Positions 33,533 to 58,455 of a DNA stretch of 64,000 bases are shown here, in pieces (the first letter of the stretch is position 1; every line of letters begins with the position of its first letter). Made by a program: the position numbers and the translations under genes. Source of the DNA: a virus; IMG/VR virus record IMGVR_UViG_3300042988_001550; one strand, given 5' to 3'. Under the pieces are notes generated by a model that saw only the letters and a program-made list of their open reading frames with translations, searched no databases and had not been told where the DNA came from.

Positions 33533-33961
33533 GTGTGGGCGCTATACTTTCATAACATGGACTACAAGATACTGTCGGTTGACAGCGCAGGATCGGTGTC
33601 GCTGTCGTCTGGTAGCAATCCAGAGAGAGTGTCCGGGATCCAGGCTCTCGTACAGGTTGTACTGATTGAGCTACTGTCGTCGTTCGATCCCAGAACATCT
33701 AGAGGTTCTGATTTGATCAAGAATGCTAATGACGTGGCAATACAAGACCCGAGTCAATTCAAGAGTATTGCCGCAAAAGCACTAAACACTGCTCAAGCGC
33801 ACATTATAGCTAACCAGTCGCAATCTCAGTGGCTTTCCACATCTGAGAGACTGATAAAGCTGGAGATGCTGGACGCAAAAATGAACAGTGGTACGTTCTC
33901 TCTGGCGTTTAAACTCACTAACGCGGATAATCAGGACATCACTGTACAGCTTCCGCTATGA
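33533..33961 (+). CDS. hypothetical protein, 142 aa (faint gp25/GPW-like baseplate motif)
   Basis: LVQVVLIELLSSFDPRTSRGSDL resembles the gp25 family core, weakly. Confidence 0.5.
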   Translation: MWALYFHNMDYKILSVDSAGSVSLSSGSNPERVSGIQALVQVVLIELLSSFDPRTSRGSDLIKNANDVAIQDPSQFKSIAAKALNTAQAHIIANQSQSQWLSTSERLIKLEMLDAKMNSGTFSLAFKLTNADNQDITVQLPL

Positions 33962-35424
33962 ATCAGATCACTAACAGCATCCTTAGCGGGCTGATCAAGT
34001 TCGCGGAACTGAAGGATGGCGTGCAGCTGCAAGAGCAGCAAGAGCGCATAAAGAAGAAGCTCAAGAAAGCTCCCGGCCTCTTAGTGTATCACGGATTAGG
34101 ATCTGGTAAGACCTTGGCGAGTATTGCGGCGGGTGACGACCTGGGTGGGAAGGTCAACGTAGTTGTTCCGGCCGCGCTCCGCGAGAACTACCGCAAAGAA
34201 ATCAATCAGTACGTCGGGAAACCCAAAGCTGACTTCGATGTTTCCTCATACGAGAAGGCATCCAAAGACGGCTTCAAGCATGATCGTGCTTCTCTGACGG
34301 TGTTTGACGAAGCCCACAGAATGGGTGATCCGTCGTCAGCCAGAGGAGATCTGCCTAGAAAGGCTCCCGGCAAGGTTCTACTACTCACCGGCACCCCGGT
34401 TAAGAACAAGCCGTCAGAAGCGTTACCTCTCCTTCGAGGTATTGCGAGAGACCGTAAGCTGCCTAAGAATGTCCAAGACTTCGATCAGCGATTTGTTGGC
34501 GAGAAGGTGGTAAAGCCGGGACTGTTCGCACGATTGCGCGGAGTTAAGCCTGGTGTTGAGAAGTACCTCAAGAACAAGGGACAGTTGGCCGAGCTCATTC
34601 GCGGCAGAGTGGACTACCACCCGTCTCGTGGAGAGTTCCCCGAGGTTAGCCACGAGTTTGTTGAAACTGAGATGACACAGACCCAGTCCGATATCTACAA
34701 AGGACTGATGAGCAAGAACCCTCTGCTAGCGTACAAGATCAAGAATAACCTTCCTCCCGATAAGAAGGAATCAGAGCAGCTGAATGCCTTCCTGTCCGGC
34801 ATACGCCAGATATCGAATGACCCGGCTACCTATGACGTTCGGCAGACAGCCCGCCCTAATGAGCGTAGCCCGAAGATTCGCAAGATGTTCACAAACATCA
34901 TGGGCAACCTCTCTAAGGATCCCGGACATAAGCATCTCGTCTACTCTAACTACCTGCGGGCCGGTGTCATGCCGTTAGCGGAGGAACTATCCGCAGCCGG
35001 CGTTTCCTATGGCATCTTCCACGGTGGGCTGAGCGATAAGCAGCGTAAGCAGGTAGTCGATGACTACAACAACAACAAGCTGCAAGTGATTCTTATCAGC
35101 GGTGCTGGCGCTGAAGGCCTGGACCTAAAAGGTACGCGCACAGTACAGGTTATGGAGCCTCACTGGAACGCGGCCAGAATACGCCAGGTCGTCGGACGCG
35201 CCGTCCGAAACAAGAGTCACTCCCATCTTCCGCCCGACCAGCGCAACGTCAAGGTAGAGTACCACATGGTACGTCCTCCTCCGCAACAGAGAATGATGGG
35301 ACTTATCCCGTCTAAGTACGAACAGGGAGCAGACCGCTATCTGCTCTCACTGGCCCAGAAGAAACAGCGACTGGTTGACGAGATGTTGAACATCTTCCAA
35401 GAAGAAGGCATGCGCCATGAATAG
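33958..35424 (+). CDS. SNF2/RAD54-family superfamily-2 helicase
   Basis: Walker A GLGSGKT, DEAH-like FDEAHR, LLTGTPVKN, and C-terminal motifs V/VI (LISGAGAEGLDL, QVVGRAVR). Confidence 0.7.
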   Translation: MNQITNSILSGLIKFAELKDGVQLQEQQERIKKKLKKAPGLLVYHGLGSGKTLASIAAGDDLGGKVNVVVPAALRENYRKEINQYVGKPKADFDVSSYEKASKDGFKHDRASLTVFDEAHRMGDPSSARGDLPRKAPGKVLLLTGTPVKNKPSEALPLLRGIARDRKLPKNVQDFDQRFVGEKVVKPGLFARLRGVKPGVEKYLKNKGQLAELIRGRVDYHPSRGEFPEVSHEFVETEMTQTQSDIYKGLMSKNPLLAYKIKNNLPPDKKESEQLNAFLSGIRQISNDPATYDVRQTARPNERSPKIRKMFTNIMGNLSKDPGHKHLVYSNYLRAGVMPLAEELSAAGVSYGIFHGGLSDKQRKQVVDDYNNNKLQVILISGAGAEGLDLKGTRTVQVMEPHWNAARIRQVVGRAVRNKSHSHLPPDQRNVKVEYHMVRPPPQQRMMGLIPSKYEQGADRYLLSLAQKKQRLVDEMLNIFQEEGMRHE

Positions 35425-35842: not shown

Positions 35843-37816
35843 ATGGCCGTAGTAGAAAATCCCAATAGATTCAGCCTTCCGGTAGAGACGACTATTCGTC
35901 AGCTGCTGCTGGAGAAGCACCCCAAGCTAAACACAGCGCCGGGCTCGGCCATTTATGATCTAATCATAACACCTGCCGCTATCATCCAGCAGCAGATGCG
36001 CGACCGCATGCGTGTAATCCAGCGCAACCAGTCAATCGCTAACTTCGCTACGATGCTCCCAGAGGAAATGGATCGTCTGGCATCTAACTTCTTCGTCACC
36101 AGAAGAAGCGGAAGTAAGGCTACTGGACAGCAGCGAGTCTATTTCTCTACGCTACAGAACGTGACGATTTCCACCAGCGCGCAGTTCACGGACGAGACCG
36201 GCCTAACGTTCAATCCGTCACAGAACGTCTTCGTTTCCGCAGCAACCCTGGCGCTGAACAACGTGCCAGAGACCGGCGAGTACTACGTAGATGTCCCGAT
36301 AGTGTCCGAAGAGGTAGGAGAGAACTACAGACTCAAGGCAGGACAGATTGTTAGAGTCTCGGGAATTTCTGGAGCCTCTAGAACGATCAACCTATACGAC
36401 ATGAGCGGTGGCTCGTATCCGGAATCTAATAGCGAGCTCTACGTCAGAATCAAGAAGTCGTTGGCATCCAGGGACACTGTCAAAGCAGACAGCATTCGCT
36501 CACTGATCCTGGACAACTTCCCGTCGATCAAAGACGTGATTGTGCAAGGGTACGGCGACACACTGATGACAAGAGATGTCGCCAGCGTCGTGATGTCTGT
36601 TGATCGGATGTTTGAAGGATCTTTCGCTCAAAAGACTAACCTACCGCTCAATGCTAACGGGGACGTTGTGTGGACAGACGATTCTGGTGAAGTGATCGTA
36701 GCACCTATCGGCGGATACGTCGGAGCGATCTACGACCTCACCGGTAAGGACTTTAACAACCTTCGTATATCACTCGACGGTCGAGCATACGAGAACATCT
36801 CAATCCAGCCAGGGTTCAAGGTTCGTTTCCTAGATGACGCAGACTCGGACAGTGGTAAGTACTTCTTGGTCACCAAAGTAGAGGAGGTGCCTGTAGAACC
36901 AGGCGGAGATCCTATCAAGGTGATTAGACTAGACAGACCACTAACGTCTCTGACATCCGCCAGCACCGCCGCTGACGGTGCGGAATACACCATCTACGGC
37001 CACGTCAATACAAACACTTTCCACATCGGCGGGAAGGTGGACGTGTACATTAAGTCGGTTGAGGACCAGACGAAGTCAGTTGTTATCGGATCACTCCCGG
37101 CTACGCACGGCGACGCTATCTGCGAAGTACCGCTAGACTCGTCGTTCATTAGTGAGACCGGTCAGAACTACTTTGAACAAGGTATCGGCTTTGATAAGCC
37201 GGTGATCACGATTGTCAAGGTTGAGGAGATCGATCCGGTCGAGAACGATAGCGTGGTGAGAACGCTGATTCCAGATGTACACTACCGCGTCATCCGCAAA
37301 GAAATGCGCGGACGGTTTACTACCGCAGTATCAGATGTTCTGCGAATTGAAGGGACAGACACGTTCGCAGAGTCGGGGATCACTATCCCGACCTTCACTG
37401 GGGCACGGATCAAGGTCACTTACGTGACTAACCCGGACATCAACCTTATTCAGGAGTACATCAATCTTCCCACCAACAGGGACATTACTGGTGACACACT
37501 CGTGCTGCCGCCAGAAGTGGTTCAGTTGAACGTGACAATGTCATACAAAGGATCTAGATCCGTTAATGAGCTGTCAGAGCTAGTATCCCGATTCATTCAA
37601 AGTAAGGGATTCGCTCCGACTATCAGCGTGAACGAGTTGCTAACTGTTCTCTCATATTTCGGCGTAACGGACGTTACATTGCCGGTACTGTTCACCGCTA
37701 TCAAAGACAACGGCGACGGTACGTATACAGTCACCAATAGTGAAGACCGTATTCAGCTAGAAAGCACGCAAGTGTTTAAACCGGTTGCACAGTTAGCAAT
37801 CACTAAGACAGCCTGA
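35843..37816 (+). CDS. putative baseplate/tail structural protein, 657 aa
   Basis: Its position immediately upstream of the giant fiber-like ORF, with ATGA coupling, suggests a baseplate wedge protein. Confidence 0.55.
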   Translation: MAVVENPNRFSLPVETTIRQLLLEKHPKLNTAPGSAIYDLIITPAAIIQQQMRDRMRVIQRNQSIANFATMLPEEMDRLASNFFVTRRSGSKATGQQRVYFSTLQNVTISTSAQFTDETGLTFNPSQNVFVSAATLALNNVPETGEYYVDVPIVSEEVGENYRLKAGQIVRVSGISGASRTINLYDMSGGSYPESNSELYVRIKKSLASRDTVKADSIRSLILDNFPSIKDVIVQGYGDTLMTRDVASVVMSVDRMFEGSFAQKTNLPLNANGDVVWTDDSGEVIVAPIGGYVGAIYDLTGKDFNNLRISLDGRAYENISIQPGFKVRFLDDADSDSGKYFLVTKVEEVPVEPGGDPIKVIRLDRPLTSLTSASTAADGAEYTIYGHVNTNTFHIGGKVDVYIKSVEDQTKSVVIGSLPATHGDAICEVPLDSSFISETGQNYFEQGIGFDKPVITIVKVEEIDPVENDSVVRTLIPDVHYRVIRKEMRGRFTTAVSDVLRIEGTDTFAESGITIPTFTGARIKVTYVTNPDINLIQEYINLPTNRDITGDTLVLPPEVVQLNVTMSYKGSRSVNELSELVSRFIQSKGFAPTISVNELLTVLSYFGVTDVTLPVLFTAIKDNGDGTYTVTNSEDRIQLESTQVFKPVAQLAITKTA

Positions 37817-40800
37817 TGAGCACGAACAAGTTCGATCCGACGCCGTTATTCGACGCGCTCCCGTCCTTTTGGAAGGATTACTACAAGGACAAGGATGTTC
37901 TATCGACTGTGTATGAGGCATTGCTTCGTATTCAGGAGATCGACTACAATCGACTGTTCACAGTAGATGATTCAAAAACGCTGTCGTCTGTCCCAGTACT
38001 GACTCGATACCCCGTTGTCTACGATCAACTGAATGATTGGGAAACAACTGGTCAGAAGCACGCACACACAAAGATCAGCGTAGCCTTCGATCCGACACTG
38101 GTTACGCCCTTTGACGCGACCACACAGTACTATAGAATCCGCTTCCCAGACACGATCTTCAAGTACGATTCCCAGCTCTACTTAGATGGCCGAGCAATCC
38201 CGGCATCCTTCTACACGAAGGTTTTCGAGCCGTACTATTCTGGAGAGTTCACAGACGGGGAAACAGTGGGAACAACTGTTTACCTGCACGCGCAGCGCCT
38301 AGCACAATTGTTCGCAAAGCCGCTGTCAACTGAAGACTATGAGCTGATCACAGAAGATCCCGACCAGTTCGATAACTACGGAAATGTGTCCGAAGACCCG
38401 GAAGCGTTCGCAGACTACGGCAATCTCGGGTGGAGCGCTATAGAAGCTGTAACAACAGCGACAATGTATGCGTTCAAGTCTGTTCTCCCACTGAAAGCCG
38501 TTACAGACGGCAGCACTTCTAGCTTTGAGCTTGATCTGTCCCCTCAGACGTTATCCACGGATGAGTCTACGGTAGTTGTAGAGAGCGTGGACGTGACTGG
38601 CCGTGTGGCCGTCTCGTATGATTCGGCGTATACCACGGTAACTCCGGTAGGCAGCTTCTCGTGGCAGACTGGCCAGACGTTCAAAGTGACTTGGCAGGAC
38701 GGAACCATCCAGCAGGTTAGCGCCGCCACTGGCCTTCCGATCTATCTAACCAAACTTGATCCGATAGCATCGGTCCAACTTCTAACAAACTTCCAGATCT
38801 ACCCGTCAGTAACGACGGTAGATATCAACGGGGTTTCGGTCGGAAACAACCAGCTGTACCCTGGAACGATCGTTCGAGTTGTGGACAGCGTCGGTACCCA
38901 AAGCGCCGTAATCACTGACGCAACTAACCGGGTCACGTTCGAAAGACCGATCGACACAAACACCGCCAAGGTGTTTTTCCACGGAATCGACCTGCTCTCT
39001 GTAGATCTGACCGAGACGGCTCTCGACTTCAACACGCCACCGAACAAGTCAGTAACACTGCGGATCGATGGTGTGATCTCGAACGATCACCAGCACGTAA
39101 CTGAAACATTTGATATCGAGGTTATCACCCGGAATATCGTCCTAGCGAACACTCCAGCGACCGGTGCGATGACCGGTAACGAGTCTGAATTCCTTCCGTG
39201 CAGGGTGTTTAAGGACGGTCAGCTGCTACTGGCCGGAACCGACTATTCGCTGGTCGGATCGATCCTTATTTTTGAAGAGGATTTGCTGCCTCCGTGCAAA
39301 GTCTCCGTGTACTACGAGATCAGCGGTGAGGTTGCGCATACGCACTACCACCAGGTTTTCCAGAACCTGGCGTCCAATAACCGACTAACCATTGATAGAG
39401 AGGTATCTGCCGATGATACGTTCGAACTATACTACGACTCCCTGCTTAATACACACCAGAGTCAGCTTGATCTGGTCGGCGGCAGAAGCATCACTCTTGA
39501 CAATGTCTTCCCCGAAAACATCACCATTGTTTTCCACGGTATTCAGCGCGGTTGGGCATATCGGCATGTTATTGCCGACCGCATGGATGCGCGATACGGG
39601 TATAGAGGACACGTCAAATCAATTGGCTTTATCCAAGACGGCCTTATTACGGCTTCCGCAACGCTCTCGTCGCAAGACGGGGACATTGCTGTAGTTGAGG
39701 AAAACGGCGATACAGTCCTCTACTCGAACACCAAAGTAATAGATGCGTGGATGTTCGATGTCGATGTAGACGAGCAGCTTATCAGCAATGTGTGGGGGGC
39801 TCTAGTAGATAACGTAGAAGCCTCCACAGATGACCAAGCTGTTCGTATTACGAGCCTCCTTGCCGCCGCTAGATCTCCAGCGTTTGTCGCTAACATGGAG
39901 AACTTCGGATCAATTGTACTAGGGTCCAGGTTTCTCGAAGAAGACGGCGTCTCTCTAGGAATCCGTACAGACGATAACGGAGACCGGGTTGTATCTATCC
40001 GTCCTACCGATACCCAGAGTGACAACTTCGACGTCCAGCTGATCGATGGCGCCGAGGTCCGCATAACGGACGGAAGCGTTCTCCCGCGCCTGTTCGCTGT
40101 CAATAAACTGCTCTCGGTTATTGACAAAGACCTGTCATCTGTTCCTTGGCTCGCCTTCATGGCTGAGTCATTGTCTAGCGACTTCAGGTTTGCTAAGAGA
40201 CTCGACGCAAAGACGTCTAAGAAGCTGACTAGTGACAACGGCCAGTTCGATCAGGTTACCGGAGTCCTAACGGACTATTCGATCAACTTCTATGAAGAAG
40301 AAGTTCGCGTAGGTGACCAGATCCGCCTCGAATTCGCTATCTTCGACTTCACTCTACCCGATAACCCTCTTGAAGAGAGAGATCCGGTTGTAGCGAACGT
40401 TCTGGAAGTAATCAATCCTAACCAGATACGTATCAAGTCCCCAGAGATTGTCGACATCGCCGGATTCGGAGAAAACTCTTACGGCTCCGGACCGTTCGGT
40501 GGCGGGATCTATACGCCGTCTCTCAGATCCTATACCGTCTGGACACGTGTAACTAGGAAGCTAGACAGCTTCTATAAGCTCGACACCGCCCTAGCATCCG
40601 CCCAAGCGTTTGTGTCTGGTGAGGACGTTCAGCTGACGAACGAGGAGCTAGCTAAGCTCTTAAGACACCACGTCTTCGTTCTGAAGCTCAATTGGGATCG
40701 TATGGTATCAGCTGAGCAGCTGGCGACGTTGCAGCAGCTGATCAGAACCCTAAAGCCCGCTAAGACGACGGCTCTGGTGTATACCGAACTGGAAGATGGT

Positions 40801-43800
40801 AATGGTATTGCAGAGACGCTGGGATCTGAGCTAACAGAAGGTTCGCCTGAGCTAAGTGTTGCAGGTGATCGAGTAGCAGATGAGTTCTACACTGGAACCA
40901 GTTATCTTGGTGCGGATTACAGAACGCAGTCTTCCACAAACACGCTGCTCTACGATCCCGCCTCGTTCACTGTGGGACCGGCAGCATTCGCCCTTACTAA
41001 CGAACCCGACCTAGTTCCTAAGGACTCGCAGTACTACCTGACAGCTTCCAGAAACAGCATGATTGATGCTGGATCTGCCTGGGCAACTCTATACTCAGGT
41101 CAGCACGGTCTGGAAGGATTACTCCTCAAATCGACTCTAGTCACTGGGGTAGCCTCTTATGAGGTGTACCCCGTGTTCGGGTACCGCCCCAACGGGTTTG
41201 CTATCGAGTTCAACGGACAGCGCCGCCTGAACGTACCGTGGGTCTATCTAGCTGACGACTTCACGTTCCGCACATGGATGACGGTTCCCAGCGGCTCAAT
41301 TGGCGCTGGAGAAAGCCCGCAACTTCTAGCTCTTGGAAGCACAGGATTCCGTATCGGTCTTGGGTATGTGTCTGCATCGACATATGAAGTGGCGATCTAC
41401 CCGAGCCCGTCGCAGAGAATTGTTGTTGCTGAGTTCTCACCAGACACTGAGACATTCCTTTCAGTGACCTATCGCGAAGATGACAGTCAGTTTGAGACGA
41501 TCATCGCTGGTGGTAGGAACGGAAGCGGCACTACTTCTACGGATGCCGGCGTCACCGCGTCGTTCACTGGAACGCTGTTCCTTGGTGCTGGAAATACTGA
41601 TCCGATTCAAGACTCTGGTATCACCGCCACACTCGACGAGACAGTTCTGCTAGGCAGAGCAGCGTCTCCTGAGGAAGTTGCGTCGTGGTACTCTACCCGA
41701 TATTGGAGCGGTCCGCTGGGCGTCAGCGCTAACGGCTCTCCGCTATCCGAGCTGGGCGCGCAAATCGTCCTTCACTTCGATAAGGAAGACGCCCTTAGCA
41801 CCACGGTGTTCGATTACTCTGGAGAAGGTAATAACCTCTCGAAAGAGTCTGACGATGTTGATGACCTGGACAGCGACTGGTTCGTTTCTGGAATCATCGA
41901 CACGCCGCTGCCGTCTGAGAAAGACTACTTCCAGCTCGATCGTCGCGGCTACTACATCACGGATGGTAGAAGAGTAACCATTCCTGTCCTCGACGAGGAT
42001 GGTGTTCCGACTACGGTGGAATACACCGCCCGTTCTGGTGAAATCGCATACACCGCTCCCAATGTCGCTTACTACTTCACAGGGAGTAGCTGGCTCAAGG
42101 TAGATGCTTTCCCGTCCACCAGCTCGTCAGCCGTCAGCGTTAACCGCTGGACCGGACCTTATCAAGGGTTCTTTGAGAACGGGTACATTGACCCCAACAA
42201 CCAGGTTCGTTCTAGCGTCATACGGTTTGATGCAACACTCGGAACTGATCCCGCGTTCAAGTTCTCAGCTAAAAACAATGCCGCTATCAGCTCGATCAAG
42301 ATCGGCGGTACCGAGATCCTCGAAGTAGACACGAAAGCCGACATCGTCCAGCAACGTTGGGAAGTCGGTAACTCTTTCGTTCTTGCGGAAGCTGGTGCAG
42401 ATAACCAATCACCGAGAGAACAGTCGCTCTCCAGATACGTGTCGTCTACCTTCACCACAACTGGTGGAGTGGTTAGATCTTATCCAGCGTTCTCGCAGCT
42501 ATACACAGAGGTAAGCCCACCGCTAGAAGCGTCAGGCGACCTCTTCACGAAGCGGGTGAAGCTCGGCGTTGTAAACAACAATCACATTCTAGAGATAGAA
42601 TCATCGCTACAGCCGTATGCCTCGCTAAACAACGCTTACGTCGGCTGGGTCTATCAGCTGAGCCTATCTGATGCGCTGACCGAGGCGTTCTCTTTCCAGG
42701 TAGGGACTCAAGGTGCTGGTTACGGCCAGCCGATCTATCTTGGTAAGGCTGAGGAATCGGATAATCAGATCGAGACCACCTTTAAGGGCGGGGTCATTCT
42801 GACGAGTGTAGACAGAACGCTGGCAATCGGTATCTACCACCACGGACCGAGCAGACCGAACTACCGTATCGCCACTGATATCGAGTATCTGAGTACCCCG
42901 AACAGGGTTCTGCTGTCGTCTACGGAATACATCAGAAACTCTGGCGGCGTGGCCGGAGAGATGAGCAAGAAGCGCTATATCTGCGCCGGTAACTTTGTCG
43001 AAGTGGTATCGGCATTCGCGGAGCTGTATGCGCACCTGGAAGGACTTCCGGCTCCGACCTTCTCCTTCCCGGCGATAGCAATGCAGGCGGCTATTACCTC
43101 GCCGCTTAACCAGAACATCCTACTGAACCAGACAGTTGATTTTAACGTTCGCGCCATCAGTGCCTACGGAACGATCGACGCGCTGTACGCGGAGGATGTG
43201 ACAGCGACGGTTACCGACATTACAACCGGAACAGCTACGGACTACGTGGAGACGTTCGTTAACGGCGTGGCCGACTTCTCGGCTATACCGATGACGCAGA
43301 ACGGCTCTAAGTCAGTGTTCCTCACCAGCGGTTCGCTGCAGCCGGCTACTCTTTCACTAGATGTGTGGTGGCCTAAGCCTATCATCACTAGTATCACGCC
43401 CACTACAAGTGTTACCGGTACAGCGGACACTACCGTTCGGATCTTTGGCTCGCAGTTCTACTCTCCTCACGTAGCACAATGGCGGGCACCTGGATCAAAT
43501 ACATGGGTTGACCAAACAACCACATACGTCAGTCCTGGAGAGGTGCAGTTCTCTCTGCTGACCAGCATGAAGACGGTCGGTCGTCACGTGATTCGTGTAT
43601 CGACGCCGAGACTGCTGGGCGCTATATCTAACTCGGTGTTCCTACAGGTAACTGCGTCCGCGCCGGTATGGTCTCCGCACTACCTGTCGATCGACACCTA
43701 TCCGTCGACAACACTAATCAATTCCAGTAATCAGTACGCTGTGTCTCTAAGACACAGCCCGTCTGGTAACCTGGCCACAATCAACAGCGGTCGCGTAACA

Positions 43801-46800
43801 CTGACTGCTCAGCCGACTGGCTCGTTTACTGGAACCATGAGTGCGTGGGCATCGCCGGTTAACGGTGTCGCTCTGATTAACGGCTCAGTCAACAAGGCAG
43901 GTATCTACGACCTCCGCGCGGTCCACTCGCCACTGTCCGGTGGAGCAGCTAGAACGGACGTAGAGTATGCTGTACTTACTGTACAGAACCCGGACCCGGT
44001 TCTTAGCCGAGTGTCTCCGCCGTGGTTCTCACCTGAAGCGGCGTCTTTTGACGAGTTCCGGCTATTCGGCGCGAACTTTATCCAGAACGACAGTGTTGTA
44101 GAGTTCTGCCTTACTTCGCCGAACCACCCGAGCTTCTCTGGTTGGACAACCAGAACGACGGTATTTGATACCAGCTCTCAGATAATCGGTTATCTCACGA
44201 CCGGTGACATTGCATACGACTCGACAGAGAGATACAGATATGCGAGAGTGTCTACACGATACTCTGTGTCTGGCCTACCTTCAGCGTCAGTAAGCATTCT
44301 CGTGTCCCCCACCGCCGGAGTTCCGCCGGTCCCGACAGTATACAGCCCGTTCTTCCTAGGTGAAGTCGTCGAAGTCGGGTCGCTCACGTACAACGATCAG
44401 TTCGTTAACGAGACGGTCGACGTTCTAGTTCCTGTACTACACTCACTCATTCCGCTAGTATCGGCGTCAACAGCAACCGGATTGGTTAGAGTGGTGGCTT
44501 CCCCAGAGCTTCCTGAGTACACTGGCTCAGGCTCGGATAGCGCTGTTCCGCAAGTCGGCAACCAGATCGCCTTCCTATCTCCTCAGATATCGTCGTACGG
44601 TAGATATCGTCTATCCGCGACATACTCCCCCGGCGTCGGTGAGACAGCGGTTGTCGGTTCAGCCAGTGATTACTTCAACGTCTATCTAAGACCCGCCACG
44701 ATTAGCCGCGTGTCCCCGGTCATAACGAGCCCGCTCGGAACGCAGACGATCACGATCACTGGCGCAGGCTTCAACGTATCGAACAAGGTTTACCTGACGA
44801 ACGCCACCGCTAGCACGACTGTAACAGCTAGCCCGTCCTTCACGTCGGCTCAGAGCATTTCGTTCCAGCTATCCCCAGGAAACTACACAGGACAGCAGGA
44901 TCTTCTGCAGATCCAGGTAGGTACGCCGACTTGGAGCTACGCACTATCAAACAGTAGTTACCTAACACTGTATCCGACACCTAGCACCTACACGGTGTCT
45001 CTAAACCCAGACGTAAACAATCCGCCGCCTATCCTGACACAGACGATCGTTGTCGGAAACACGCTACCGACGATCGACGCACATGTCTTCGATAACGCCG
45101 GACAGCCTGCAACGTCTGTAACTGGCTTAGTGTCCCTCGCCATCACCAAGACCACAGGCGGTGTGGCTTACAGCGGAGCAGATTCGCCGGTCAACGGCTA
45201 CGCCTCCTTCTCTGGTATCACCGCTCCGGCGGCAGGTATCTACAACATCTCGGCTGAGTTCTCTCCGACCGGCGGAACTCCTGTAACAGCAGACGAGATC
45301 CAGTTCTACTCGCTAAACCCCGTCGGATACGCTACAAGCGTAAGCCCATCCACATTCGCGGCCAACGGTGTTCCGAGAACGATTAAGGTGTACGGCCAGA
45401 ACTTCCTTTCTGGAAGCACCGCTGTCCTGGTTAACGGAAGCGAGTCGGCTGCGTTTGTGCAGACAGTACACAGCCCGAAGGCGCTCACAGCAACACTAAG
45501 TACGTTCGCTTCTAACAGCGTCGGTACTCATCAGATCTCTATCAAGACGCAGTTTGCTGCTCCTGGCGGGCAGCCAGCTTATAGTGGTGTTTCTGTTCCT
45601 CTAACCATCACAGCTAACCCGTCGGCTCCAGCCGCTGGATCTGAGGAGAACCTGCCTGCTACCATCATCGTCTCTCCTCTAGGATATGCGAGAGTACGTT
45701 CACCTTCCGGACCAATCACGCCGATCTGGACACCTGTAGCTGTTCCAGGACAGGATCGCGGTAGCGATAGCCTGTGGCAGGCGTGCATCAATCGCGTTGG
45801 CCAGTACAACACGGCCAATCCTCCCGGTACTATCCAACCTACAGCGACCAGCCCCGGCGCTGCGGACGTGGTTGAAGTCACAGCCGGTATGTACTCTCAC
45901 GTCAAGTTCTACACCGGGAATGCAAGCGGTCCCCACGAGACAACAAACGCACAGGCTAGAGGACTCAGCCTAAGACAGCCCCTTATCATTCGTGCACGCA
46001 AGACTAACGGTGTTGCCGAGCCTGTAGTTATTCGCCCCTTCTCGTTCATCGACCCAGCAGACACGACATACGCGTGCATAACCTTCCAGGCAACACCAAC
46101 GTACAAGCCTGGCTTCATGCACTTCTACGATATTGGTTTCATGGGACGTCACTACGGTGTCGAGCATGTTCGATCAACGAACATGACCGGCTCGGTGGAC
46201 TACTACTATGAAGATCATCAGTTCCATCGTTGCCGTATCCTCGGCACGTATGACCATCGAACAATAGCGTTGGCGCCGTATAGGGTGACTCAATCAACCC
46301 AAAGTAATGTCCTCACTAATCAGAAGCACTGGAATTACCTAGGTCAGGAACTAATTGCTCCATCAACTAGCCCGTCCAATAGCTTCTTATGGAGAATGGA
46401 TATTCCAGCAGACCAGGTACATCGGGCGCTACATAGAAACCGTTATTGCGTCAGTGTGCCGGTCACCAGTCCGGCAGATCTGAATCCATTGCCCACCTGC
46501 CTAGGGGTTGTAATCGGCGCGGCACCGTCTAGTGAGTTTGTTTACACATCTAGCCAGAGCGTCTCGACTAGCAAGCTAATTCACCTCGGCCTTGATAAGG
46601 GAACCGGCGGCTCACCGCACTATGTTGAGCTGACATTGATGGCAGACGGTGAAAACGGCGGCGCAGGTGTAGCGAATTCCCGGTCAAATGTCTCTGTATG
46701 GAGCGGTTCTTGGCAGCTTCTCACTGTTACAAACGGAGTGGTTCCTGTCGGCACCGTTTACGACAATACTAAGTACCCCTTGACTGGTAGAGTTATTGGC

Positions 46801-49110
46801 GGCACGGCACTCTACCCGAACATCATCTTCCGCAATCCAGGGTACTACCACTTTACCGCTAGATTGCTGAACGGAGCTGGCGTAGAGATTCCGCTACCTA
46901 GTCCTGCCAAGAACATCTATGTTCAGGCAACCACACCGGGTATCTCTCAAAAAGAGACGTACATTGATAACAACTTCGTTGCAGTAAACCCCAACAACGC
47001 GGCTATTACATACGCTAAGACGTCTCTACCAAAACTAAAGGTAGTGAATAATCTCACAAGCATCTTCACCTTGCCTGTGAACGCTCTCTGTAACTACAAT
47101 CTGCTTCTAGCAGAGCAGCAGCCGGTTCAGGCTCCGATGATCACCGGTACGCTCGACTATACGATGGATTTGACCAGCTATAACGCTGGTTGGAGATGGG
47201 CGGACTCCTTCGGAACGCTCCTGTCCGGTAATCCAAGAGTATTGACCGGACAGATGATCAATGGTTTCGGTAACGTCTACTCGTCGCCGTCGCCGTCTGT
47301 AGCTGTCTATGGTAGACAAGGTCTGCGCTTAAAGTACACCGGTACGTCGACCACTTTCCTAAGTAACGCTGTAGCCGTCGTTGTCACTAAGCGGTCGGTA
47401 ACTCCTGCAGAAACAACACTAACAGTACCCACAAGCAACACACCGCCGCTAAAATACACGTTGGAATTTGTTGCTGGCGGATCAAGCACGACATACCAGA
47501 ACACTTCCGCGTCTGGTGCGTGGTGGCACTCAGTCAACGGTGGATACTCTGGATCGACTAACCTCGGCAGAGGTCGTGTCTTCTGTGCCAGCTGGCCAGG
47601 TAGCCCGAACCACCCGAACTACGATCCTGACACAACCGGCGTATTCTATCCCCATCCAGACGACTGCCCTTATCTGACGTACCCAGAAGGGCGCTCGATG
47701 AAACAGGGTAACCAGGTTTACACTGGCCAGGATTACCTGTGGGATGGTGGTTTCGTTGGCCACATCGCCGAAGAGCACGGGTTCTACTTCCACAACAACC
47801 GTAACGTGACAGTTAGAAATACACTGATCAAGTACACCGGTCGTACTGGAATCCAGAGTCTCAACTGGTGGCAAGATAACAAGCCAAGTGATACTGTCGG
47901 GGACCTTAACCACCCGAATAACCGAGAGAACGTGTCGCAGTTCGGCTACTCTCTGGTGTTCGAGAAGAACACGTTGAAGGATTGTGGGATTACCACACCG
48001 ACACGTCAGCTCACGGTAGCTGACTACGCGGGCAGTGTATACATCCGTAACAACAAGATGTTGTTAGGATTCAACGGCAAGCTGCGCCACTGGGAATCGA
48101 TCAATGCTGGCGCAATCGTCGTGTACGATGGTAGAGCCTTCGTACAGGCATTAGGCCTGCCTAATGATCACTGGAACATCTATCCAGATCACTTCATGGT
48201 CGATCAGTTCGATAACCCTGCGGTTGACTGGCAACACATTAAATTGGCCAATCTAGAGTACACACCAATAGGGTCGAGAGACTACTATCCTGGTGGAGCT
48301 GTGAACCCTTACATAGGATTGAGCCCGTCGCACCCGTACTACTACCTACGCAGACTGTTTGAAAACTATCCCAGACTCGGGTTTGCTTCAGGACAGCAGT
48401 ATCAGGTCGTGCAGAACGGTCTGGTAAACTGGACACCCAACCACCCGTATTACAACCGGGCGTACGGTCACCCTAGATTCTCTGCCGCGCCGTTCACTAA
48501 GTCGATCACCTTAACAAAGCCCCCGCCCAGTGGAACCGGTCCAAGCGTCAGCGTGACGTTAGGATCTCCGACAGTAGGGTTCTATGGTGGTACTCAAAAG
48601 GTTGGTGCCGTCTACGTAAGTGACAACATCATCTGGGGAAACAGCTGGATCTCCGGCGCTAGACCCCTAGCAACCGCACTATCAGGAGACCCGTACTTCA
48701 GCGAGTTTGTTCATGCTGACTGGGTTTCTCCTGGTATACGCCCACAAGGCATGATCGCCCTGGATACGACGGGTGGATATACTGGAACAGTGTTGCAGGA
48801 AGGAACAGGATTCCAGCACCCGCTGGTGGCCTTCGGAGGAATGCGTAACCTCATCCTTAACCACAACTCGATCAAGCCTGGCAACACAGTAGTCGGTAAG
48901 ATTGACCTGAATCCGAAACAGGCCACTGGCAACGACCTGTACTATCCTCCCATCCTATCAGTAACCGGCTCGCACAACATCTTTGCGACTGCTCCTGGTA
49001 AGTCCGCCGGATTCCGTTACTACTTCACGGACACGACAAATCCGATTGTAGCTGCCCTACGCAGCCAGCTTTTGAGCAGCGTCTCTCCCAGCCCTAACCT
49101 GTATTTCTGA
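37816..49110 (+). CDS. giant tail-fiber/adhesin-like protein, 3764 aa, with LamG-like, repeated IPT/TIG-like and beta-helix-like segments
   Basis: One 11.3 kb ORF. A LamG-like segment near nt 41260..41600 (TGTLFLGAGNT). At least four IPT/TIG-like units between nt 43380 and 45470 (PIITSITPTTSVTGTADTTVRIFGSQF, LSRVSPPWFSPEAASFDEFRLFGANF, ATISRVSPVITSPLGTQTITITGAGF, VSPSTFAANGVPRTIKVYGQNF). A beta-helix-like NNRNVTVRNTLIKYTG segment near nt 47560..48900. Confidence 0.8.
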   Translation: MSTNKFDPTPLFDALPSFWKDYYKDKDVLSTVYEALLRIQEIDYNRLFTVDDSKTLSSVPVLTRYPVVYDQLNDWETTGQKHAHTKISVAFDPTLVTPFDATTQYYRIRFPDTIFKYDSQLYLDGRAIPASFYTKVFEPYYSGEFTDGETVGTTVYLHAQRLAQLFAKPLSTEDYELITEDPDQFDNYGNVSEDPEAFADYGNLGWSAIEAVTTATMYAFKSVLPLKAVTDGSTSSFELDLSPQTLSTDESTVVVESVDVTGRVAVSYDSAYTTVTPVGSFSWQTGQTFKVTWQDGTIQQVSAATGLPIYLTKLDPIASVQLLTNFQIYPSVTTVDINGVSVGNNQLYPGTIVRVVDSVGTQSAVITDATNRVTFERPIDTNTAKVFFHGIDLLSVDLTETALDFNTPPNKSVTLRIDGVISNDHQHVTETFDIEVITRNIVLANTPATGAMTGNESEFLPCRVFKDGQLLLAGTDYSLVGSILIFEEDLLPPCKVSVYYEISGEVAHTHYHQVFQNLASNNRLTIDREVSADDTFELYYDSLLNTHQSQLDLVGGRSITLDNVFPENITIVFHGIQRGWAYRHVIADRMDARYGYRGHVKSIGFIQDGLITASATLSSQDGDIAVVEENGDTVLYSNTKVIDAWMFDVDVDEQLISNVWGALVDNVEASTDDQAVRITSLLAAARSPAFVANMENFGSIVLGSRFLEEDGVSLGIRTDDNGDRVVSIRPTDTQSDNFDVQLIDGAEVRITDGSVLPRLFAVNKLLSVIDKDLSSVPWLAFMAESLSSDFRFAKRLDAKTSKKLTSDNGQFDQVTGVLTDYSINFYEEEVRVGDQIRLEFAIFDFTLPDNPLEERDPVVANVLEVINPNQIRIKSPEIVDIAGFGENSYGSGPFGGGIYTPSLRSYTVWTRVTRKLDSFYKLDTALASAQAFVSGEDVQLTNEELAKLLRHHVFVLKLNWDRMVSAEQLATLQQLIRTLKPAKTTALVYTELEDGNGIAETLGSELTEGSPELSVAGDRVADEFYTGTSYLGADYRTQSSTNTLLYDPASFTVGPAAFALTNEPDLVPKDSQYYLTASRNSMIDAGSAWATLYSGQHGLEGLLLKSTLVTGVASYEVYPVFGYRPNGFAIEFNGQRRLNVPWVYLADDFTFRTWMTVPSGSIGAGESPQLLALGSTGFRIGLGYVSASTYEVAIYPSPSQRIVVAEFSPDTETFLSVTYREDDSQFETIIAGGRNGSGTTSTDAGVTASFTGTLFLGAGNTDPIQDSGITATLDETVLLGRAASPEEVASWYSTRYWSGPLGVSANGSPLSELGAQIVLHFDKEDALSTTVFDYSGEGNNLSKESDDVDDLDSDWFVSGIIDTPLPSEKDYFQLDRRGYYITDGRRVTIPVLDEDGVPTTVEYTARSGEIAYTAPNVAYYFTGSSWLKVDAFPSTSSSAVSVNRWTGPYQGFFENGYIDPNNQVRSSVIRFDATLGTDPAFKFSAKNNAAISSIKIGGTEILEVDTKADIVQQRWEVGNSFVLAEAGADNQSPREQSLSRYVSSTFTTTGGVVRSYPAFSQLYTEVSPPLEASGDLFTKRVKLGVVNNNHILEIESSLQPYASLNNAYVGWVYQLSLSDALTEAFSFQVGTQGAGYGQPIYLGKAEESDNQIETTFKGGVILTSVDRTLAIGIYHHGPSRPNYRIATDIEYLSTPNRVLLSSTEYIRNSGGVAGEMSKKRYICAGNFVEVVSAFAELYAHLEGLPAPTFSFPAIAMQAAITSPLNQNILLNQTVDFNVRAISAYGTIDALYAEDVTATVTDITTGTATDYVETFVNGVADFSAIPMTQNGSKSVFLTSGSLQPATLSLDVWWPKPIITSITPTTSVTGTADTTVRIFGSQFYSPHVAQWRAPGSNTWVDQTTTYVSPGEVQFSLLTSMKTVGRHVIRVSTPRLLGAISNSVFLQVTASAPVWSPHYLSIDTYPSTTLINSSNQYAVSLRHSPSGNLATINSGRVTLTAQPTGSFTGTMSAWASPVNGVALINGSVNKAGIYDLRAVHSPLSGGAARTDVEYAVLTVQNPDPVLSRVSPPWFSPEAASFDEFRLFGANFIQNDSVVEFCLTSPNHPSFSGWTTRTTVFDTSSQIIGYLTTGDIAYDSTERYRYARVSTRYSVSGLPSASVSILVSPTAGVPPVPTVYSPFFLGEVVEVGSLTYNDQFVNETVDVLVPVLHSLIPLVSASTATGLVRVVASPELPEYTGSGSDSAVPQVGNQIAFLSPQISSYGRYRLSATYSPGVGETAVVGSASDYFNVYLRPATISRVSPVITSPLGTQTITITGAGFNVSNKVYLTNATASTTVTASPSFTSAQSISFQLSPGNYTGQQDLLQIQVGTPTWSYALSNSSYLTLYPTPSTYTVSLNPDVNNPPPILTQTIVVGNTLPTIDAHVFDNAGQPATSVTGLVSLAITKTTGGVAYSGADSPVNGYASFSGITAPAAGIYNISAEFSPTGGTPVTADEIQFYSLNPVGYATSVSPSTFAANGVPRTIKVYGQNFLSGSTAVLVNGSESAAFVQTVHSPKALTATLSTFASNSVGTHQISIKTQFAAPGGQPAYSGVSVPLTITANPSAPAAGSEENLPATIIVSPLGYARVRSPSGPITPIWTPVAVPGQDRGSDSLWQACINRVGQYNTANPPGTIQPTATSPGAADVVEVTAGMYSHVKFYTGNASGPHETTNAQARGLSLRQPLIIRARKTNGVAEPVVIRPFSFIDPADTTYACITFQATPTYKPGFMHFYDIGFMGRHYGVEHVRSTNMTGSVDYYYEDHQFHRCRILGTYDHRTIALAPYRVTQSTQSNVLTNQKHWNYLGQELIAPSTSPSNSFLWRMDIPADQVHRALHRNRYCVSVPVTSPADLNPLPTCLGVVIGAAPSSEFVYTSSQSVSTSKLIHLGLDKGTGGSPHYVELTLMADGENGGAGVANSRSNVSVWSGSWQLLTVTNGVVPVGTVYDNTKYPLTGRVIGGTALYPNIIFRNPGYYHFTARLLNGAGVEIPLPSPAKNIYVQATTPGISQKETYIDNNFVAVNPNNAAITYAKTSLPKLKVVNNLTSIFTLPVNALCNYNLLLAEQQPVQAPMITGTLDYTMDLTSYNAGWRWADSFGTLLSGNPRVLTGQMINGFGNVYSSPSPSVAVYGRQGLRLKYTGTSTTFLSNAVAVVVTKRSVTPAETTLTVPTSNTPPLKYTLEFVAGGSSTTYQNTSASGAWWHSVNGGYSGSTNLGRGRVFCASWPGSPNHPNYDPDTTGVFYPHPDDCPYLTYPEGRSMKQGNQVYTGQDYLWDGGFVGHIAEEHGFYFHNNRNVTVRNTLIKYTGRTGIQSLNWWQDNKPSDTVGDLNHPNNRENVSQFGYSLVFEKNTLKDCGITTPTRQLTVADYAGSVYIRNNKMLLGFNGKLRHWESINAGAIVVYDGRAFVQALGLPNDHWNIYPDHFMVDQFDNPAVDWQHIKLANLEYTPIGSRDYYPGGAVNPYIGLSPSHPYYYLRRLFENYPRLGFASGQQYQVVQNGLVNWTPNHPYYNRAYGHPRFSAAPFTKSITLTKPPPSGTGPSVSVTLGSPTVGFYGGTQKVGAVYVSDNIIWGNSWISGARPLATALSGDPYFSEFVHADWVSPGIRPQGMIALDTTGGYTGTVLQEGTGFQHPLVAFGGMRNLILNHNSIKPGNTVVGKIDLNPKQATGNDLYYPPILSVTGSHNIFATAPGKSAGFRYYFTDTTNPIVAALRSQLLSSVSPSPNLYF

Positions 49111-56247: not shown

Positions 56248-57081
56248 TCACGAAACAGTCTTGAACGTCTTCTGGAGAAGCGCGAACTTCTTGCGAAGCT
56301 CCTTGTTCTCTTGACGAATGGACTCGATCTCCTTCACGAAGTTGGTGACCGTCATGAGGGCACGCACCAGGTCAGATGTCTGGTCGCCCTTCACCTTTGC
56401 CGCCTTCTTCGTGACCGGCTGAACCGGCGCGGGCTGCGTAGTCGTTGCCGGAGCAGCACTGACTTCCAGCACTTGCTCCTTGACGACCTTGTTGTCAGGC
56501 TTGTCGGCCTTGTGGACGTTGTTGACCTGCAGCCACTTCATGACTGCGAAGCCAATCGACGACGGCGATGAGCTGAGACCGAATTCGCGGGCAATCGGAC
56601 CCAACTTCTCTGCGATCTTCGAGATGGTGTCTCCCGCTTCTCGGGAAGACCGGACCATGTCGGAATGGAGCTCGACGAATGCCTTGAGCTCCCCACGCTC
56701 TGCTTTTGCTGTCATCATCATCGGTTCCGGCTGTGTTGCAACCGGCTTGGAGATTACCTGTTCACGCGTCTCGACGATCTCCTTAGCGTCGAGCCACGCA
56801 GCCAACGAGCGACTCAATGCCCTTGGCTTGAAAACACCATTGAACGTTCTGTCAGAATACACCTTCCGACAGTGGGTAAACACGTTGTGATTGCAAAAAG
56901 TCGTAAACACAACCAACGCAATCTCGGCATCCACACCGGGAGGATAGTGTTTCCTGTCACGAAAAATAACGCGCGAGGACCTGCGCACCTCGGGAGAAAA
57001 CTTGTTCTCTCCTCCTCCCACCACAAGAACCCGTGATCCTGAAGGCAATGCCGCTAACCGCTGATCAAGTGTTTGATTCAT
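56248..57081 (-). CDS. DUF2325-like N-terminal domain protein with C-terminal coiled coil
   Basis: Started at MNQTLDQ, which follows an AGGAGGG ribosome-binding site. RVLVVGGG...AEIALVVFTTFCNHNVF resembles DUF2325. The MCHK extension is rejected. Confidence 0.5.
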   Translation of the reverse strand: MNQTLDQRLAALPSGSRVLVVGGGENKFSPEVRRSSRVIFRDRKHYPPGVDAEIALVVFTTFCNHNVFTHCRKVYSDRTFNGVFKPRALSRSLAAWLDAKEIVETREQVISKPVATQPEPMMMTAKAERGELKAFVELHSDMVRSSREAGDTISKIAEKLGPIAREFGLSSSPSSIGFAVMKWLQVNNVHKADKPDNKVVKEQVLEVSAAPATTTQPAPVQPVTKKAAKVKGDQTSDLVRALMTVTNFVKEIESIRQENKELRKKFALLQKTFKTVS

Positions 57082-57105
57082 TAAGCCCTCCTGTGGCTCA
57101 ACGAT

Positions 57106-58452: not shown

Positions 58453-58455
58453 ACC

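Follow-up and report, generated by a model that had tools for sequence, protein, structure and literature searches.

A single uninterrupted gene of 3764 codons lies directly behind the Baseplate_J gene in the 64,000-nucleotide stretch of viral DNA studied here (the window), and both its reality and its position are confirmed. It probably encodes a virion protein of an uncultured large contractile-tailed phage, with two modules that we propose to provide a wedge anchor and a fibre with its tip. Judged from sequence comparison, the protein is a fusion of module A (aa 1–1475) and module B (aa 1477–3764) and belongs to a small, previously undescribed family, a few members of which split the same protein into two genes. 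Its most likely function would be that of a baseplate-wedge-attached adhesin or depolymerase arm. The relevant features are:

33533–33961, plus strand: gp25/W-like baseplate protein gene (phrog_2669 'baseplate protein', E 7.8e-5)
35843–37816, plus strand: Baseplate_J/gp6-like wedge subunit gene (PF04865, E 1.7e-9; phrog_6, E 2.9e-25)
37816–49110 (stop codon included), plus strand: giant open reading frame, ATG start, 3764 aa, no interruption
37816–40965, plus strand: N-terminal module, aa 1–1050; presumed baseplate attachment (gp7 position)
41251–41682, plus strand: Laminin_G_3 (concanavalin-like lectin) domain, aa 1146–1289 (PF13385, E 2.7e-6)
41683–42147, plus strand: conserved region C-terminal to LamG, aa 1290–1444, closing module A
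42148–42255, plus strand: A|B linker, aa 1445–1480, with junction codon Gly1476 (42241–42243); site of gene fission in relatives
42256–43089, plus strand: conserved B N-terminal domain, aa 1481–1758; 34–54% identity to relatives
43090–45630, plus strand: stalk of four (Ig-like + TIG) pairs, aa 1759–2605, namely Ig1 1759–1852, TIG1 1853–1949, Ig2 1950–2058, TIG2 2059–2168, Ig3 2169–2291, TIG3 2292–2387, Ig4 2388–2500 and TIG4 2501–2605
45631–47559, plus strand: family-conserved region with no assigned fold, aa 2606–3248; 34–53% identity
47560–49107, plus strand: predicted right-handed parallel β-helix (pectin-lyase-like), aa 3249–3764, with conserved polar motifs
49134–53962, plus strand: four genes of 474, 179, 774 and 181 aa that always accompany the giant gene

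The giant gene, its neighbours and its family

From the regional base composition, a stop-free run of this length would arise by chance with a probability of about 1e-68, and each of the other five frames over the same interval contains 127–233 stops. The GC content at codon position 3 stays at 0.54–0.61 throughout, including the junction region of aa 1426–1525. The ATG overlaps the TGA stop of the Baseplate_J gene by one base (TGATG), and the assignment of this start codon is supported by the conservation of the N-terminus MSTNKF... in homologues. An identical protein, P0002, is already on record in JGI/IMG as a 'hypothetical protein' on a 65,123-bp contig. The initial annotation had proposed a single 3764-aa frame of unusual size in a baseplate block. 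Our ORF listing returns the same coordinates, the Baseplate_J and gp25-like genes lie upstream, and the protein exceeds the 3398-aa virion RNA polymerase of the N4-like phage DEV, itself highlighted for its size (PMC11445570), with relatives reaching a family maximum of 4231 aa.

The surroundings of the gene are shared with its relatives. The Baseplate_J protein is 71% identical to its orthologue in L001, and the order of Baseplate_J followed by the giant gene is common to the window, L001 and L002, the latter two also carrying a gene of similar length (134 aa) in the position of the gp25/W-like gene. L002 has the same synteny and L072 a similar one, in which a 666-aa gene is followed by a 123-nt gap and then the giant gene. 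The downstream series of four genes is likewise found 3' of the giant gene in L001, L002, L003, L071 and L072. These genes yield only weak family hints (phrog_13571 'virion structural protein', E 3.7e-4; phrog_5417), and probably encode further baseplate or fibre components. A sugar island, described in the initial annotation as adjacent and fitting, is situated at 10.2–16.8 kb, about 21 kb upstream and past a minus-strand tRNA block, and shows no link to the giant gene. In all, the window encodes 14 tRNAs and a tmRNA.

An exhaustive phmmer search of 1.84 billion (1.84e9) representative proteins returned 14 proteins, query included. Six others are full-length single chains of 3636–4231 aa (P0003, P0006, P0008, P0010, P0011 and P0013), and the relatives reside on contigs of about 120–190 kb. 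In a neighbour-joining tree, the L001 B protein falls into a clade with the window protein, P0003, P0005, P0006 and P0008, which is separated from P0010, P0011, P0013 and P0014 with 100% support. Along the conservation profile, variation is greatest in the linker and the stalk, and conservation extends over the anchor, the N-terminal domain of B and the tip.

No PHROG matches the giant protein, and searching 50,697 GenBank phage records by megablast and tblastn with the ORF, either of its termini or P0014 gave no match; the protein also lacks a precedent in proteomic or structural work. Scans of IMG/VR that used single sequences, alignments or a degenerate motif as queries gave no hits, and neither did the scan of genome contigs or a first metagenome scan. 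A profile of the N-terminal module retrieved only P0001 and a 573-aa fragment. A junction-spanning query (aa 1101–1800) gave no match and missed a known relative too, probably because low-complexity candidates crowded the list.

The junction between modules A and B

In L001, whose reads are in SRR13612670, A (1427 aa) and B (2239 aa) are two genes with an ATGA overlap, split exactly at aa 1476. The stop/start at this junction reads CTATGACG, and the window there reads CTCGGAACT; the residue count is kept and the two are a 1-nt indel apart. In the distant relative L003, A (1774 aa, with a faint precomputed Laminin_G_3 match) and B (2503 aa) have 7.3 kb between them and the linker is absent. Fused frames are found in P0003, P0005, P0006, P0008, P0010, P0011 and P0013, each of which gives one BLASTP alignment across aa 1476, and L057 provides a further open frame over the junction, making eight other lineages in frame at this residue. 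A same-length member from a second source is present in the 90%-identity cluster of P0003 and likewise in that of P0013, and the fused state persists among lineages down to about 25% identity. Since eight other lineages are fused and two are split, the fused frame is inherited rather than mis-joined, and aa 1476 is a true module boundary. This answers the concern raised in the initial annotation that the frame had been mis-joined, given that the eight are open across the only split site. The fusion of modules that also occur as separate genes had been overlooked there, and is the most informative feature of the protein.

The length difference at the junction from L001, the nearest of the split relatives, is exactly 1 nt, as would be expected if the single frame were an assembly or sequencing artefact and a 1-nt error concealed a true locus of two genes. 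However, more than one change would be needed for a split in the window, where GGA stands in place of the ATG that starts B in L001, and aa 1401–1542 contain no in-frame ATG, GTG or TTG. The indel site is no homopolymer (the nearest run of at least 5 bases is at 42271), the coding signature is even over the junction, and the eight other lineages open at the same point come from different samples and assemblers. We regard an artefact as very improbable and this explanation as largely refuted. Proteolysis after translation is somewhat more probable: one chain could be made and then cut in the linker (aa 1445–1480), yielding virion proteins A and B as in the split relatives. Two lineages function with A and B as separate polypeptides, so covalent continuity between them is not essential, and the linker is both the least conserved segment (17–36% identity) and dispensable in L003. 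On the other hand, neither a protease site nor an autoproteolytic motif was recognised, and retention of the fusion down to about 25% identity suggests that it is tolerated or favoured, which is still compatible with cleavage. On balance we consider such processing unlikely and favour a fusion protein that stays in one piece.

Other candidate arrangements were discarded. A programmed -1 frameshift producing an A–B fusion in L001 was rejected because the final 300 nt of gene A contain no slippery heptamer, and internal initiation of B in the window fails for want of an in-frame start within aa 1401–1542; SD motifs were absent 5' of the gene starts examined in this phage. P0005 had seemed to mark a second fission point after LamG; its gene starts at contig base 16 and is truncated by the contig edge.

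Domain composition from the presumed anchor to the tip

The N-terminal module (aa 1–1050) is conserved in all eight full or A-type members at 29–51% identity, with many invariant residues. It matched nothing in Pfam, PHROG, NCBIfam or the PDB, showed no detectable similarity to gp7, TssG, P2 gpI or solved structures, and a PDB profile search with 8 N-terminal module sequences gave nothing real. Proteins of the gp7/TssG/P2 gpI type are recognised by a gene directly after gp6/Baseplate_J, as is the case here with its stop/start overlap, by sequence or profile similarity, which aa 1–1050 lack, and by helices at the N-terminus that build a core bundle together with two gp6-like subunits. Because similarity of sequence and structure is absent, it is gene order that would assign the N-terminus to the wedge, and from its place directly behind Baseplate_J we infer a gp7-like role. 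The nearest cultured phage is Salmonella phage Arash, in which gp14 is the post-J protein; homology of the N-terminus to gp14 was rejected as non-significant (4.6% hhalign probability).

Near the end of module A, the Laminin_G_3 domain, which includes the motif TGTLFLGAGNT, scores 28.1 bits against a PF13385 gathering threshold of 27.6 bits and thus passes marginally. The same family matches in 4 of 8 members (best 6e-7), and a PDB profile search with the LamG region gave weak matches, all of them concanavalin-fold proteins. An AF2 model of the region from a 2-sequence alignment (pLDDT 32.5) is too poor to support the fold. Beyond it, a family HMM of aa 1345–1476 finds its region in 8 members (E 1e-21 to 2e-55), and aa 1290–1444 are predicted to be all-β by a low-confidence AF2 model only.

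Module B opens with the conserved domain of aa 1481–1758, which matches no known family; the stand-alone B proteins P0004 and P0014 likewise start with it. This domain probably serves for docking where B is a separate protein. In the stalk, PF01833 (TIG) matches three stretches of the full protein at 40.5 bits (E 2.7e-10), exceeding its gathering threshold of 20.9 bits, and single TIG-type modules from the window and L001 match TIG in 6 of 8 cases (best 2.8e-8). NCBIfam NF058597 (CoaZ_rpt_PGGG) scores 38.0 bits with the TIG1 segment and 33.2 with TIG4, both above its cutoff of 30 bits, and 16 with TIG3, below it. For the alternating Ig-like modules, the only hints are weak ones to Big_15/Big_1 (E 0.068 and 0.23). 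Neither protein self-BLAST nor Tandem Repeats Finder detected near-identical protein or DNA-level repeats in the stalk, which indicates that the modules are old and divergent. The following region (aa 2606–3248) is found by its family HMM in 12 members, with no match in Pfam, NCBIfam or the PDB. By analogy with the 441-aa relative P0015, aa 2606–2800 were considered as a β-helix N-terminal cap; the HMM comparison score was negative and gives this idea no support.

For the C-terminal tip, a single AF2 model (mean pLDDT 66.7) of aa 3249–3764 superposes in three dimensions on solved β-helix proteins, with non-significant Foldseek E-values. Its closest structural neighbours are mostly glycoside hydrolases, polysaccharide lyases, epimerases and phage depolymerases. 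The model is poor over an insertion of about 90 residues. At the sequence level, PF13229 (Beta_helix) reaches 13.6–13.8 bits (E ~0.05), below its gathering threshold of 25.9 bits, and weak, sub-threshold matches (best 2.7e-4) come from 8 of the 14 family members. Searching the PDB by sequence and by profile with A, B, the N-module and the β-helix gave no meaningful match. The tip carries the motifs WPGxPxHPNY, EHGFYxH, GRTGxQ and NRAYGHP, and HPNY, EH..Y.H, D.G..DG and NRAYGHP change little or not at all among members that share only 20–30% identity.

The reading of the protein as a multi-domain fibre or adhesin, offered in the initial annotation, agrees with the presence of LamG, TIG and β-helix domains in a baseplate block. 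The annotated LamG-like module near nt 41500 corresponds to the PF13385 match just over its cutoff, and the 'at least four' IPT/TIG repeats to four TIG modules alternating with four Ig-like ones. Their description as eukaryote-type does not hold, since the TIG modules match a bacterial surface-protein repeat (NF058597) and tail fibres of jumbo phages are already reported to carry Laminin-G3 lectins (PMC7824862). A parallel β-helix of the tailspike or polysaccharide-enzyme type was correctly anticipated at the level of the modelled fold. Assigned to the C-terminal third, it is predicted here for the last ~515 aa (14%), the preceding 643 aa having no assignable fold.

A proposed wedge-attached arm and its relation to known systems

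We propose that module A, translationally coupled to the Baseplate_J gene, most likely takes the peripheral wedge position of gp7-like proteins and would anchor the chain in the baseplate. It ends in the Laminin_G_3 lectin and a small conserved C-terminal region, and is joined to B through some 30 linker residues of low conservation. Module B then runs from a domain of about 280 aa through the four Ig-like/TIG pairs and a 640-aa region to the distal pectin-lyase-type β-helix. The eight-domain stalk would keep the tip some tens of nanometres out, where the β-helix, and possibly the LamG lectin too, may bind host surface polysaccharide. Cleavage of this polysaccharide by the β-helix is also possible, because its polar motifs are conserved. 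Engagement of the tip may be relayed to the wedge as a trigger of contraction. As A and B are one polypeptide in most relatives, a peptide bond would there hold the fibre to the wedge protein; in the two lineages with separate genes, B must dock non-covalently. We infer that the fibre points outward, that the protein binds or cleaves glycans and that each wedge has a single copy; enzymatic activity and oligomeric state should be read in the same conditional way. Classical tailspikes are trimeric, as against the single copy per wedge expected of a protein in this position, which would speak against a trimer here.

The distal β-helix might instead be a non-catalytic ligand-binding module, making the protein a pure adhesin with no depolymerase. 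We give this a real though clearly smaller chance, as most of the top structural neighbours are glycan-acting enzymes or phage depolymerases, the tip is among the best conserved parts of the protein, and polar motifs that stay invariant at 20–30% identity look more like an active site than a variable receptor-binding surface. It is far less credible that the protein is internal or ejected, tape-measure-like or cell-wall-penetrating, with no external fibre. Phage proteins of very large size commonly turn out to be tape measures or enzymes that are ejected, the 3398-aa N4-like vRNAP (PMC11445570) being one example. However, the domains recognised here (TIG, LamG, β-helix) are extracellular adhesion or carbohydrate folds, and the gene lies behind Baseplate_J, not between the tail tube/chaperone genes and the hub. 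Moreover, both AF2 models are mainly β-strand, whereas tape measures are helical. We therefore retain the external, wedge-attached arm as the preferred reading.

T4 gp7 has 1032 aa, and the giant protein is 3.6 times as long. Like T4 gp7 and Pam3 gp23, it is encoded immediately 3' of a gp6/J-like gene, with translational coupling, and is a large multi-domain protein expected to bear the host-recognition apparatus. Unlike these proteins, it has no detectable similarity to any solved baseplate protein, and fibre and tip would reside within the same polypeptide rather than in separate trimeric proteins. Each wedge of Pam3 is built from gp22, as two gp6-like subunits, and gp23, the single peripheral subunit, on which the fibres are docked covalently, via disulfides (PMC9942802).

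When comparing the tip with phage tailspike depolymerases that contain a pectin-lyase-like helix (CBA120 TSP2, KP32gp38, Depo32, Det7, HK620, the cyanophage Pam1 tailspike and Geobacillus virus E2 ORF18), sequence identity is just 8–13%. Those are trimer-forming proteins of about 500–800 aa that attach through a short N-terminal adaptor, whereas here the helix would be the last 14% of a 3764-aa chain. Concanavalin-fold Laminin-G3 lectin domains are known from jumbo-phage tail fibres (Iyer et al. 2021, PMC7824862), and the giant protein is similar in that it is tail-associated, comes from a large phage and contains a PF13385 domain. However, its LamG lies near the baseplate-proximal end (aa 1146–1289), not at the tip, and always in module A. 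Bacterial giant adhesins with tandem Ig-like/TIG repeats (NF058597 'choice-of-anchor Z') and β-helix adhesins such as PfbA are further comparators. In contrast to bacterial giant adhesins, the giant gene sits in a phage baseplate block without signal peptide or cell-wall anchor context, and the N-terminus of its product is a phage-specific module conserved only in its own family.

Phage receptor-binding organs are normally made of several modest-sized, usually trimeric proteins docked on the baseplate. Here, anchor, lectin, stalk and β-helix tip would be combined in one chain of 3.6–4.2 thousand residues, an architecture conserved across a deep, very sparsely sampled lineage of uncultured phages of 120–190 kb. 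Because tail adhesins and depolymerases are an ordinary functional class, we see an interesting variant and not a new kind of system. A more far-reaching view, in which a single ~400 kDa chain per wedge unites peripheral subunit, monomeric Ig/TIG stalk and enzymatic tip as a new design for host recognition, is tentative and, in our estimate, rather doubtful. If it were true, the fused, ATGA-coupled and unlinked variants would form a series from covalent to non-covalent fibre attachment. For annotation and review, giant ORFs of this kind can be accepted as real. About 1700 residues (aa 1–1050 and 2606–3248) are conserved and have no known fold. To express the fibre part by itself, the A|B junction at aa 1476 provides a natural cut site that evolution has validated. 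Finally, the coexistence of fused and split relatives would allow a direct test of whether covalent attachment of fibre to wedge matters for triggering.

The giant reading frame and its genomic setting

ORF listing and translation gave one open reading frame on the plus strand at 37816..49110, with an ATG start and a product of 3764 aa, exactly the single frame described in the initial annotation. At the regional base composition, the chance of 3764 uninterrupted sense codons is approximately 1e-68, and the remaining five frames of this stretch carry 127–233 stops each. Third-position GC is 0.54–0.61 in all 1.5-kb blocks and over aa 1426–1525. The ATG overlaps by one base (TGATG) the TGA that ends ORF 35843..37816 upstream, and the chosen start is supported by the N-terminal sequence MSTNKF..., which is kept in homologues. 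The frame had been placed in a tail/baseplate operon, rightly so given two genes upstream.

Baseplate genes upstream of the giant gene
33533..33961, plus strand: gp25/W-like baseplate gene (phrog_2669)
35843..37816, plus strand: Baseplate_J / baseplate wedge protein gene (PF04865, E 1.7e-9; phrog_6, E 2.9e-25)

Between these two genes of the baseplate block lies an SNF2-family helicase gene (33958..35424, plus strand; PF00176, PF00271), which occupies the same odd position in the related contigs L001 and L002 and sits downstream of the baseplate block in the relative L003. Many gene pairs of the window are joined through ATGA or TGATG overlaps, and no recognisable Shine-Dalgarno motif precedes the starts at 31177, 33533, 33958, 35843, 37816, 49134, 50555, 51096 and 53417. 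Together, these features suggest a host with Shine-Dalgarno-independent initiation, with Bacteroidota or cyanobacteria as speculative candidates.

Other features of the window
10197..16811, plus strand: sugar-modification island with a GtrB-like glycosyltransferase, a second glycosyltransferase (phrog_2644, E 8.6e-57), a methyltransferase, an aminotransferase-like ORF and a nucleotide-sugar epimerase (phrog_540, E 5e-76)
21461..27052, minus strand: tRNA cluster 1, seven genes (Arg-tct, Pro-tgg, Leu-tag, Tyr-gta, Leu-taa, Val-tac, Ser-tga)
58376..59325, minus strand: tRNA cluster 2, seven genes (Met, Ile-gat, Ala-tgc, Asn, Asp, His, Glu)

The sugar island had been described as adjacent to the giant ORF and as fitting its product. 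It actually lies about 21 kb upstream, past seven tRNA genes in a block on the minus strand, and nothing connects the two. All 14 tRNA genes of both clusters are on the minus strand. A tmRNA (59447..59792, minus strand; Rfam RF00023, 101 bits; ARAGORN tag peptide AEPQLAMAA) adjoins a seven-tRNA cluster, and a group I catalytic intron (57617..57809, minus strand; Rfam RF00028, 57.6 bits versus a cutoff of 50) lies between the ORF 56248..57117 (minus strand) and the tRNA cluster. A stretch of 110 nt at 60064..60173 (minus strand) matches the Rfam tRNA model (44.2 bits) and was not called by ARAGORN; it may be a tRNA that has an intron or is atypical in some other way. The gene at 5167..5892 (plus strand) resembles RNA polymerase sigma factors (phrog_351, E 3e-13); a distant relative, Salmonella phage Arash (L005), also has a sigma factor gene, gp10, near its baseplate J-like gene.

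Fused and split forms of the protein

For the N-terminal 1100 aa, a word-indexed protein search returned a single homologue, P0001 (1427 aa), encoded on a 123-kb contig (L001) that is syntenic with the window. In L001 the slot of the giant gene is occupied by a gene pair, A (1427 aa) and B (2239 aa), whose members meet in an ATGA overlap, the usual gene boundary in both genomes. Window aa 1–1475 are collinear with the A product (48% identity) and aa 1477–3764 with the B product (37% identity). The residue count at the junction is equal, reading ...DATL-G-TDPAFKF in the window versus ...DETL-stop / M-TRPVFTF in L001, and the junction DNA, CTCGGAACT versus CTATGACG, differs by 1 nt in length plus substitutions. 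No in-frame start codon was found within window aa 1401–1542, and no slippery heptamer within the final 300 nt of L001 gene A. The Baseplate_J proteins of window and L001 are 71% identical; the giant protein thus evolves faster than its neighbour. The nearest relative of the window phage found anywhere is a 2570-bp contig (L058, ERZ650308), of which positions 52–738 encode a partial counterpart of window aa 3544–3764 at 79% identity; the contig is too short to include the junction.

An exhaustive phmmer search with aa 2600–3764 against 1.84 billion representative proteins yielded 14 proteins in total, including the window protein itself (P0002; JGI/IMG, 65-kb contig). Six others are full-length single chains (P0003, 3756 aa; P0006, 3728; P0008, 3984; P0010, 4168; P0011, 4231; P0013, 3636), P0005 is cut off by its contig edge, two are B-only forms (P0004 of L001, and P0014), and four short proteins match C-terminal regions only. 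These six chains and P0005 all align across aa 1476 in a single BLASTP alignment (7/7). Moreover, a degenerate-motif scan of metagenome contigs revealed a 2608-aa frame on a 132-kb contig (L057) that stays open through the junction to the stored locus edge, and clustering at 90% identity groups P0003 and P0013 each with a protein of equal length from a second source. The P0003 locus (L002) is syntenic with the window gene for gene, its fused 3756-aa gene following a J-position gene of 663 aa, and the 183-kb contig of P0013 (L072), from a distant clade, has a similar arrangement.

The second split form looks different. On the 189-kb contig L003, 16 opposite-strand genes (7.3 kb) separate the B-type gene (P0014) from an A-type gene of 1774 aa. 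The latter has a faint Laminin_G_3 match, matches window aa 884–1105 (E 2e-25) and ends near the equivalent of window aa 1445; the A|B linker is absent. A quick neighbour-joining estimate from the B N-terminal region placed the L001 B protein in a clade with the window, P0003, P0005, P0006 and P0008, versus a clade of P0010, P0011, P0013 and P0014 (100% support), in which split P0014 pairs with fused P0013 (99%). Branching within the window/L001 clade is poorly supported in the quick bootstrap; by pairwise identity, L001 is nearest to the window (45%) and P0003 (44%), versus 36–32% for others. Under every rooting considered, these sequence comparisons indicate that the fused state of the window is inherited and the fission in L001 secondary. 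The concern that the long frame might be mis-joined is thereby answered by comparative evidence.

Domain content and comparison with known systems

Regions of the 3764-aa protein
aa 1–1050, plus strand: conserved N-terminal module without a match to any known family
aa 1146–1289 (nt 41251–41682), plus strand: Laminin_G_3 lectin domain (PF13385)
aa 1759–2605, plus strand: four Ig-like + TIG pairs (PF01833, NF058597, inspection and alignment)
aa 2606–3248, plus strand: conserved region, fold not assignable, without a family or fold match
aa 3249–3764, plus strand: right-handed parallel beta-helix (predicted model and conserved motifs)

In a scan of the full protein, TIG (PF01833) was the sole Pfam family, matching three stretches at 40.5 bits versus a cutoff of 20.9, and a PHROGs search gave zero matches. 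Scanned singly, six of eight TIG-type modules from the window and L001 matched PF01833 (best 2.8e-8), and segments with TIG modules 1 and 4 passed the curated cutoff of NCBIfam NF058597, which models a repeat found in bacterial surface proteins. By inspection and alignment, each of the four pairs has an Ig-like module first and a TIG module second. The modules between the TIGs gave just weak Big_15/Big_1 hints, and their length and alternation suggest that they are Ig-like. At least four TIG-like repeats had been anticipated, and four TIG modules stand in the stalk; likewise, the LamG-like segment noted near nt 41500 falls, with its motif, inside the PF13385 match (E 2.7e-6, 28.1 bits versus a cutoff of 27.6), a domain matched by four of eight family members.

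No family or fold could be assigned to aa 1–1050 or aa 2606–3248, and the idea of the latter as a helix cap found no support when tested. The tip, aa 3249–3764, is a predicted beta-helix, the fold call resting on one predicted model; the initial annotation had extended this fold to the C-terminal third, of which the last 515 residues hold up and the whole does not. Large insertions are lineage-specific: P0014 (L003:10001-17512) carries about 900 extra residues between the TIG region and the C-terminal part, and P0010 and P0011 about 700 following the N-terminal module (about aa 1000–1700).

Beta-helix tips are a standard tailspike design, and Ig-like repeats are well known on phage surface proteins. 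LamG3 lectin domains have previously been described on jumbo-phage fibres (PMC7824862). The earlier label 'eukaryote-type' does not meaningfully apply to any of the folds. What is unusual is the size (3764 aa in the window, up to 4231 aa in the family; for comparison, the virion RNA polymerase of the N4-like phage DEV, itself a giant phage protein, has 3398 aa, PMC11445570), the architecture, with post-J protein, stalk and tip as one chain, and some 1700 conserved residues without a known fold. The family is also unusually rare and isolated: about 15 lineages turned up in two very large collections, and none of 50,697 GenBank phage genomes contains a relative. The closest cultured phages have only a distant Baseplate_J in common, led by Salmonella phage Arash (29% identity over 36% of the protein) and followed by Vibrio phages, Bacillus phage G and actinophages.

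A proposed anchor, stalk and tip

With the gp25-like gene, J and the giant gene in this order, and the giant gene's start codon overlapping the J stop, the N-terminal module takes the place of a peripheral wedge subunit, which, on synteny, is its most likely role. The wedge of the minimal myophage Pam3 comprises two gp6-like gp22 and one peripheral gp23, and its fibres dock on gp23 with disulfides that tie them covalently to the wedge (PMC9942802). From synteny and this precedent, we read module A (aa 1–1475) as a putative baseplate anchor bearing the LamG lectin. Module B (aa 1477–3764) would be the fibre, made up of a docking domain, a stalk of eight Ig/TIG domains, the conserved mid region and a tip formed by the beta-helix; a peptide bond would usually attach fibre to anchor in this family. 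The identity profile fits this anchor/fibre reading.

Identity to relatives by module
N-terminal anchor: 39–52%
Linker: 17–36%
B N-terminal domain: 34–54%
Ig/TIG stalk: 25–43%
Mid region: 34–53%
Beta-helix tip: 33–62%

The polar motifs WPGxPxHPNY, EHGFYxH, GRTGxQ and NRAYGHP of the tip are kept among members just 20–30% identical. Together with enzyme-rich structural neighbours, they make a putative polysaccharide-degrading activity plausible; a tip that only binds, as an adhesin, is a serious alternative. The tandem Ig-like chain would be compatible with a monomeric stalk. If the protein is truly present once per wedge, stalk and tip would both be monomers, in contrast to the trimers of classical fibres and tailspikes.
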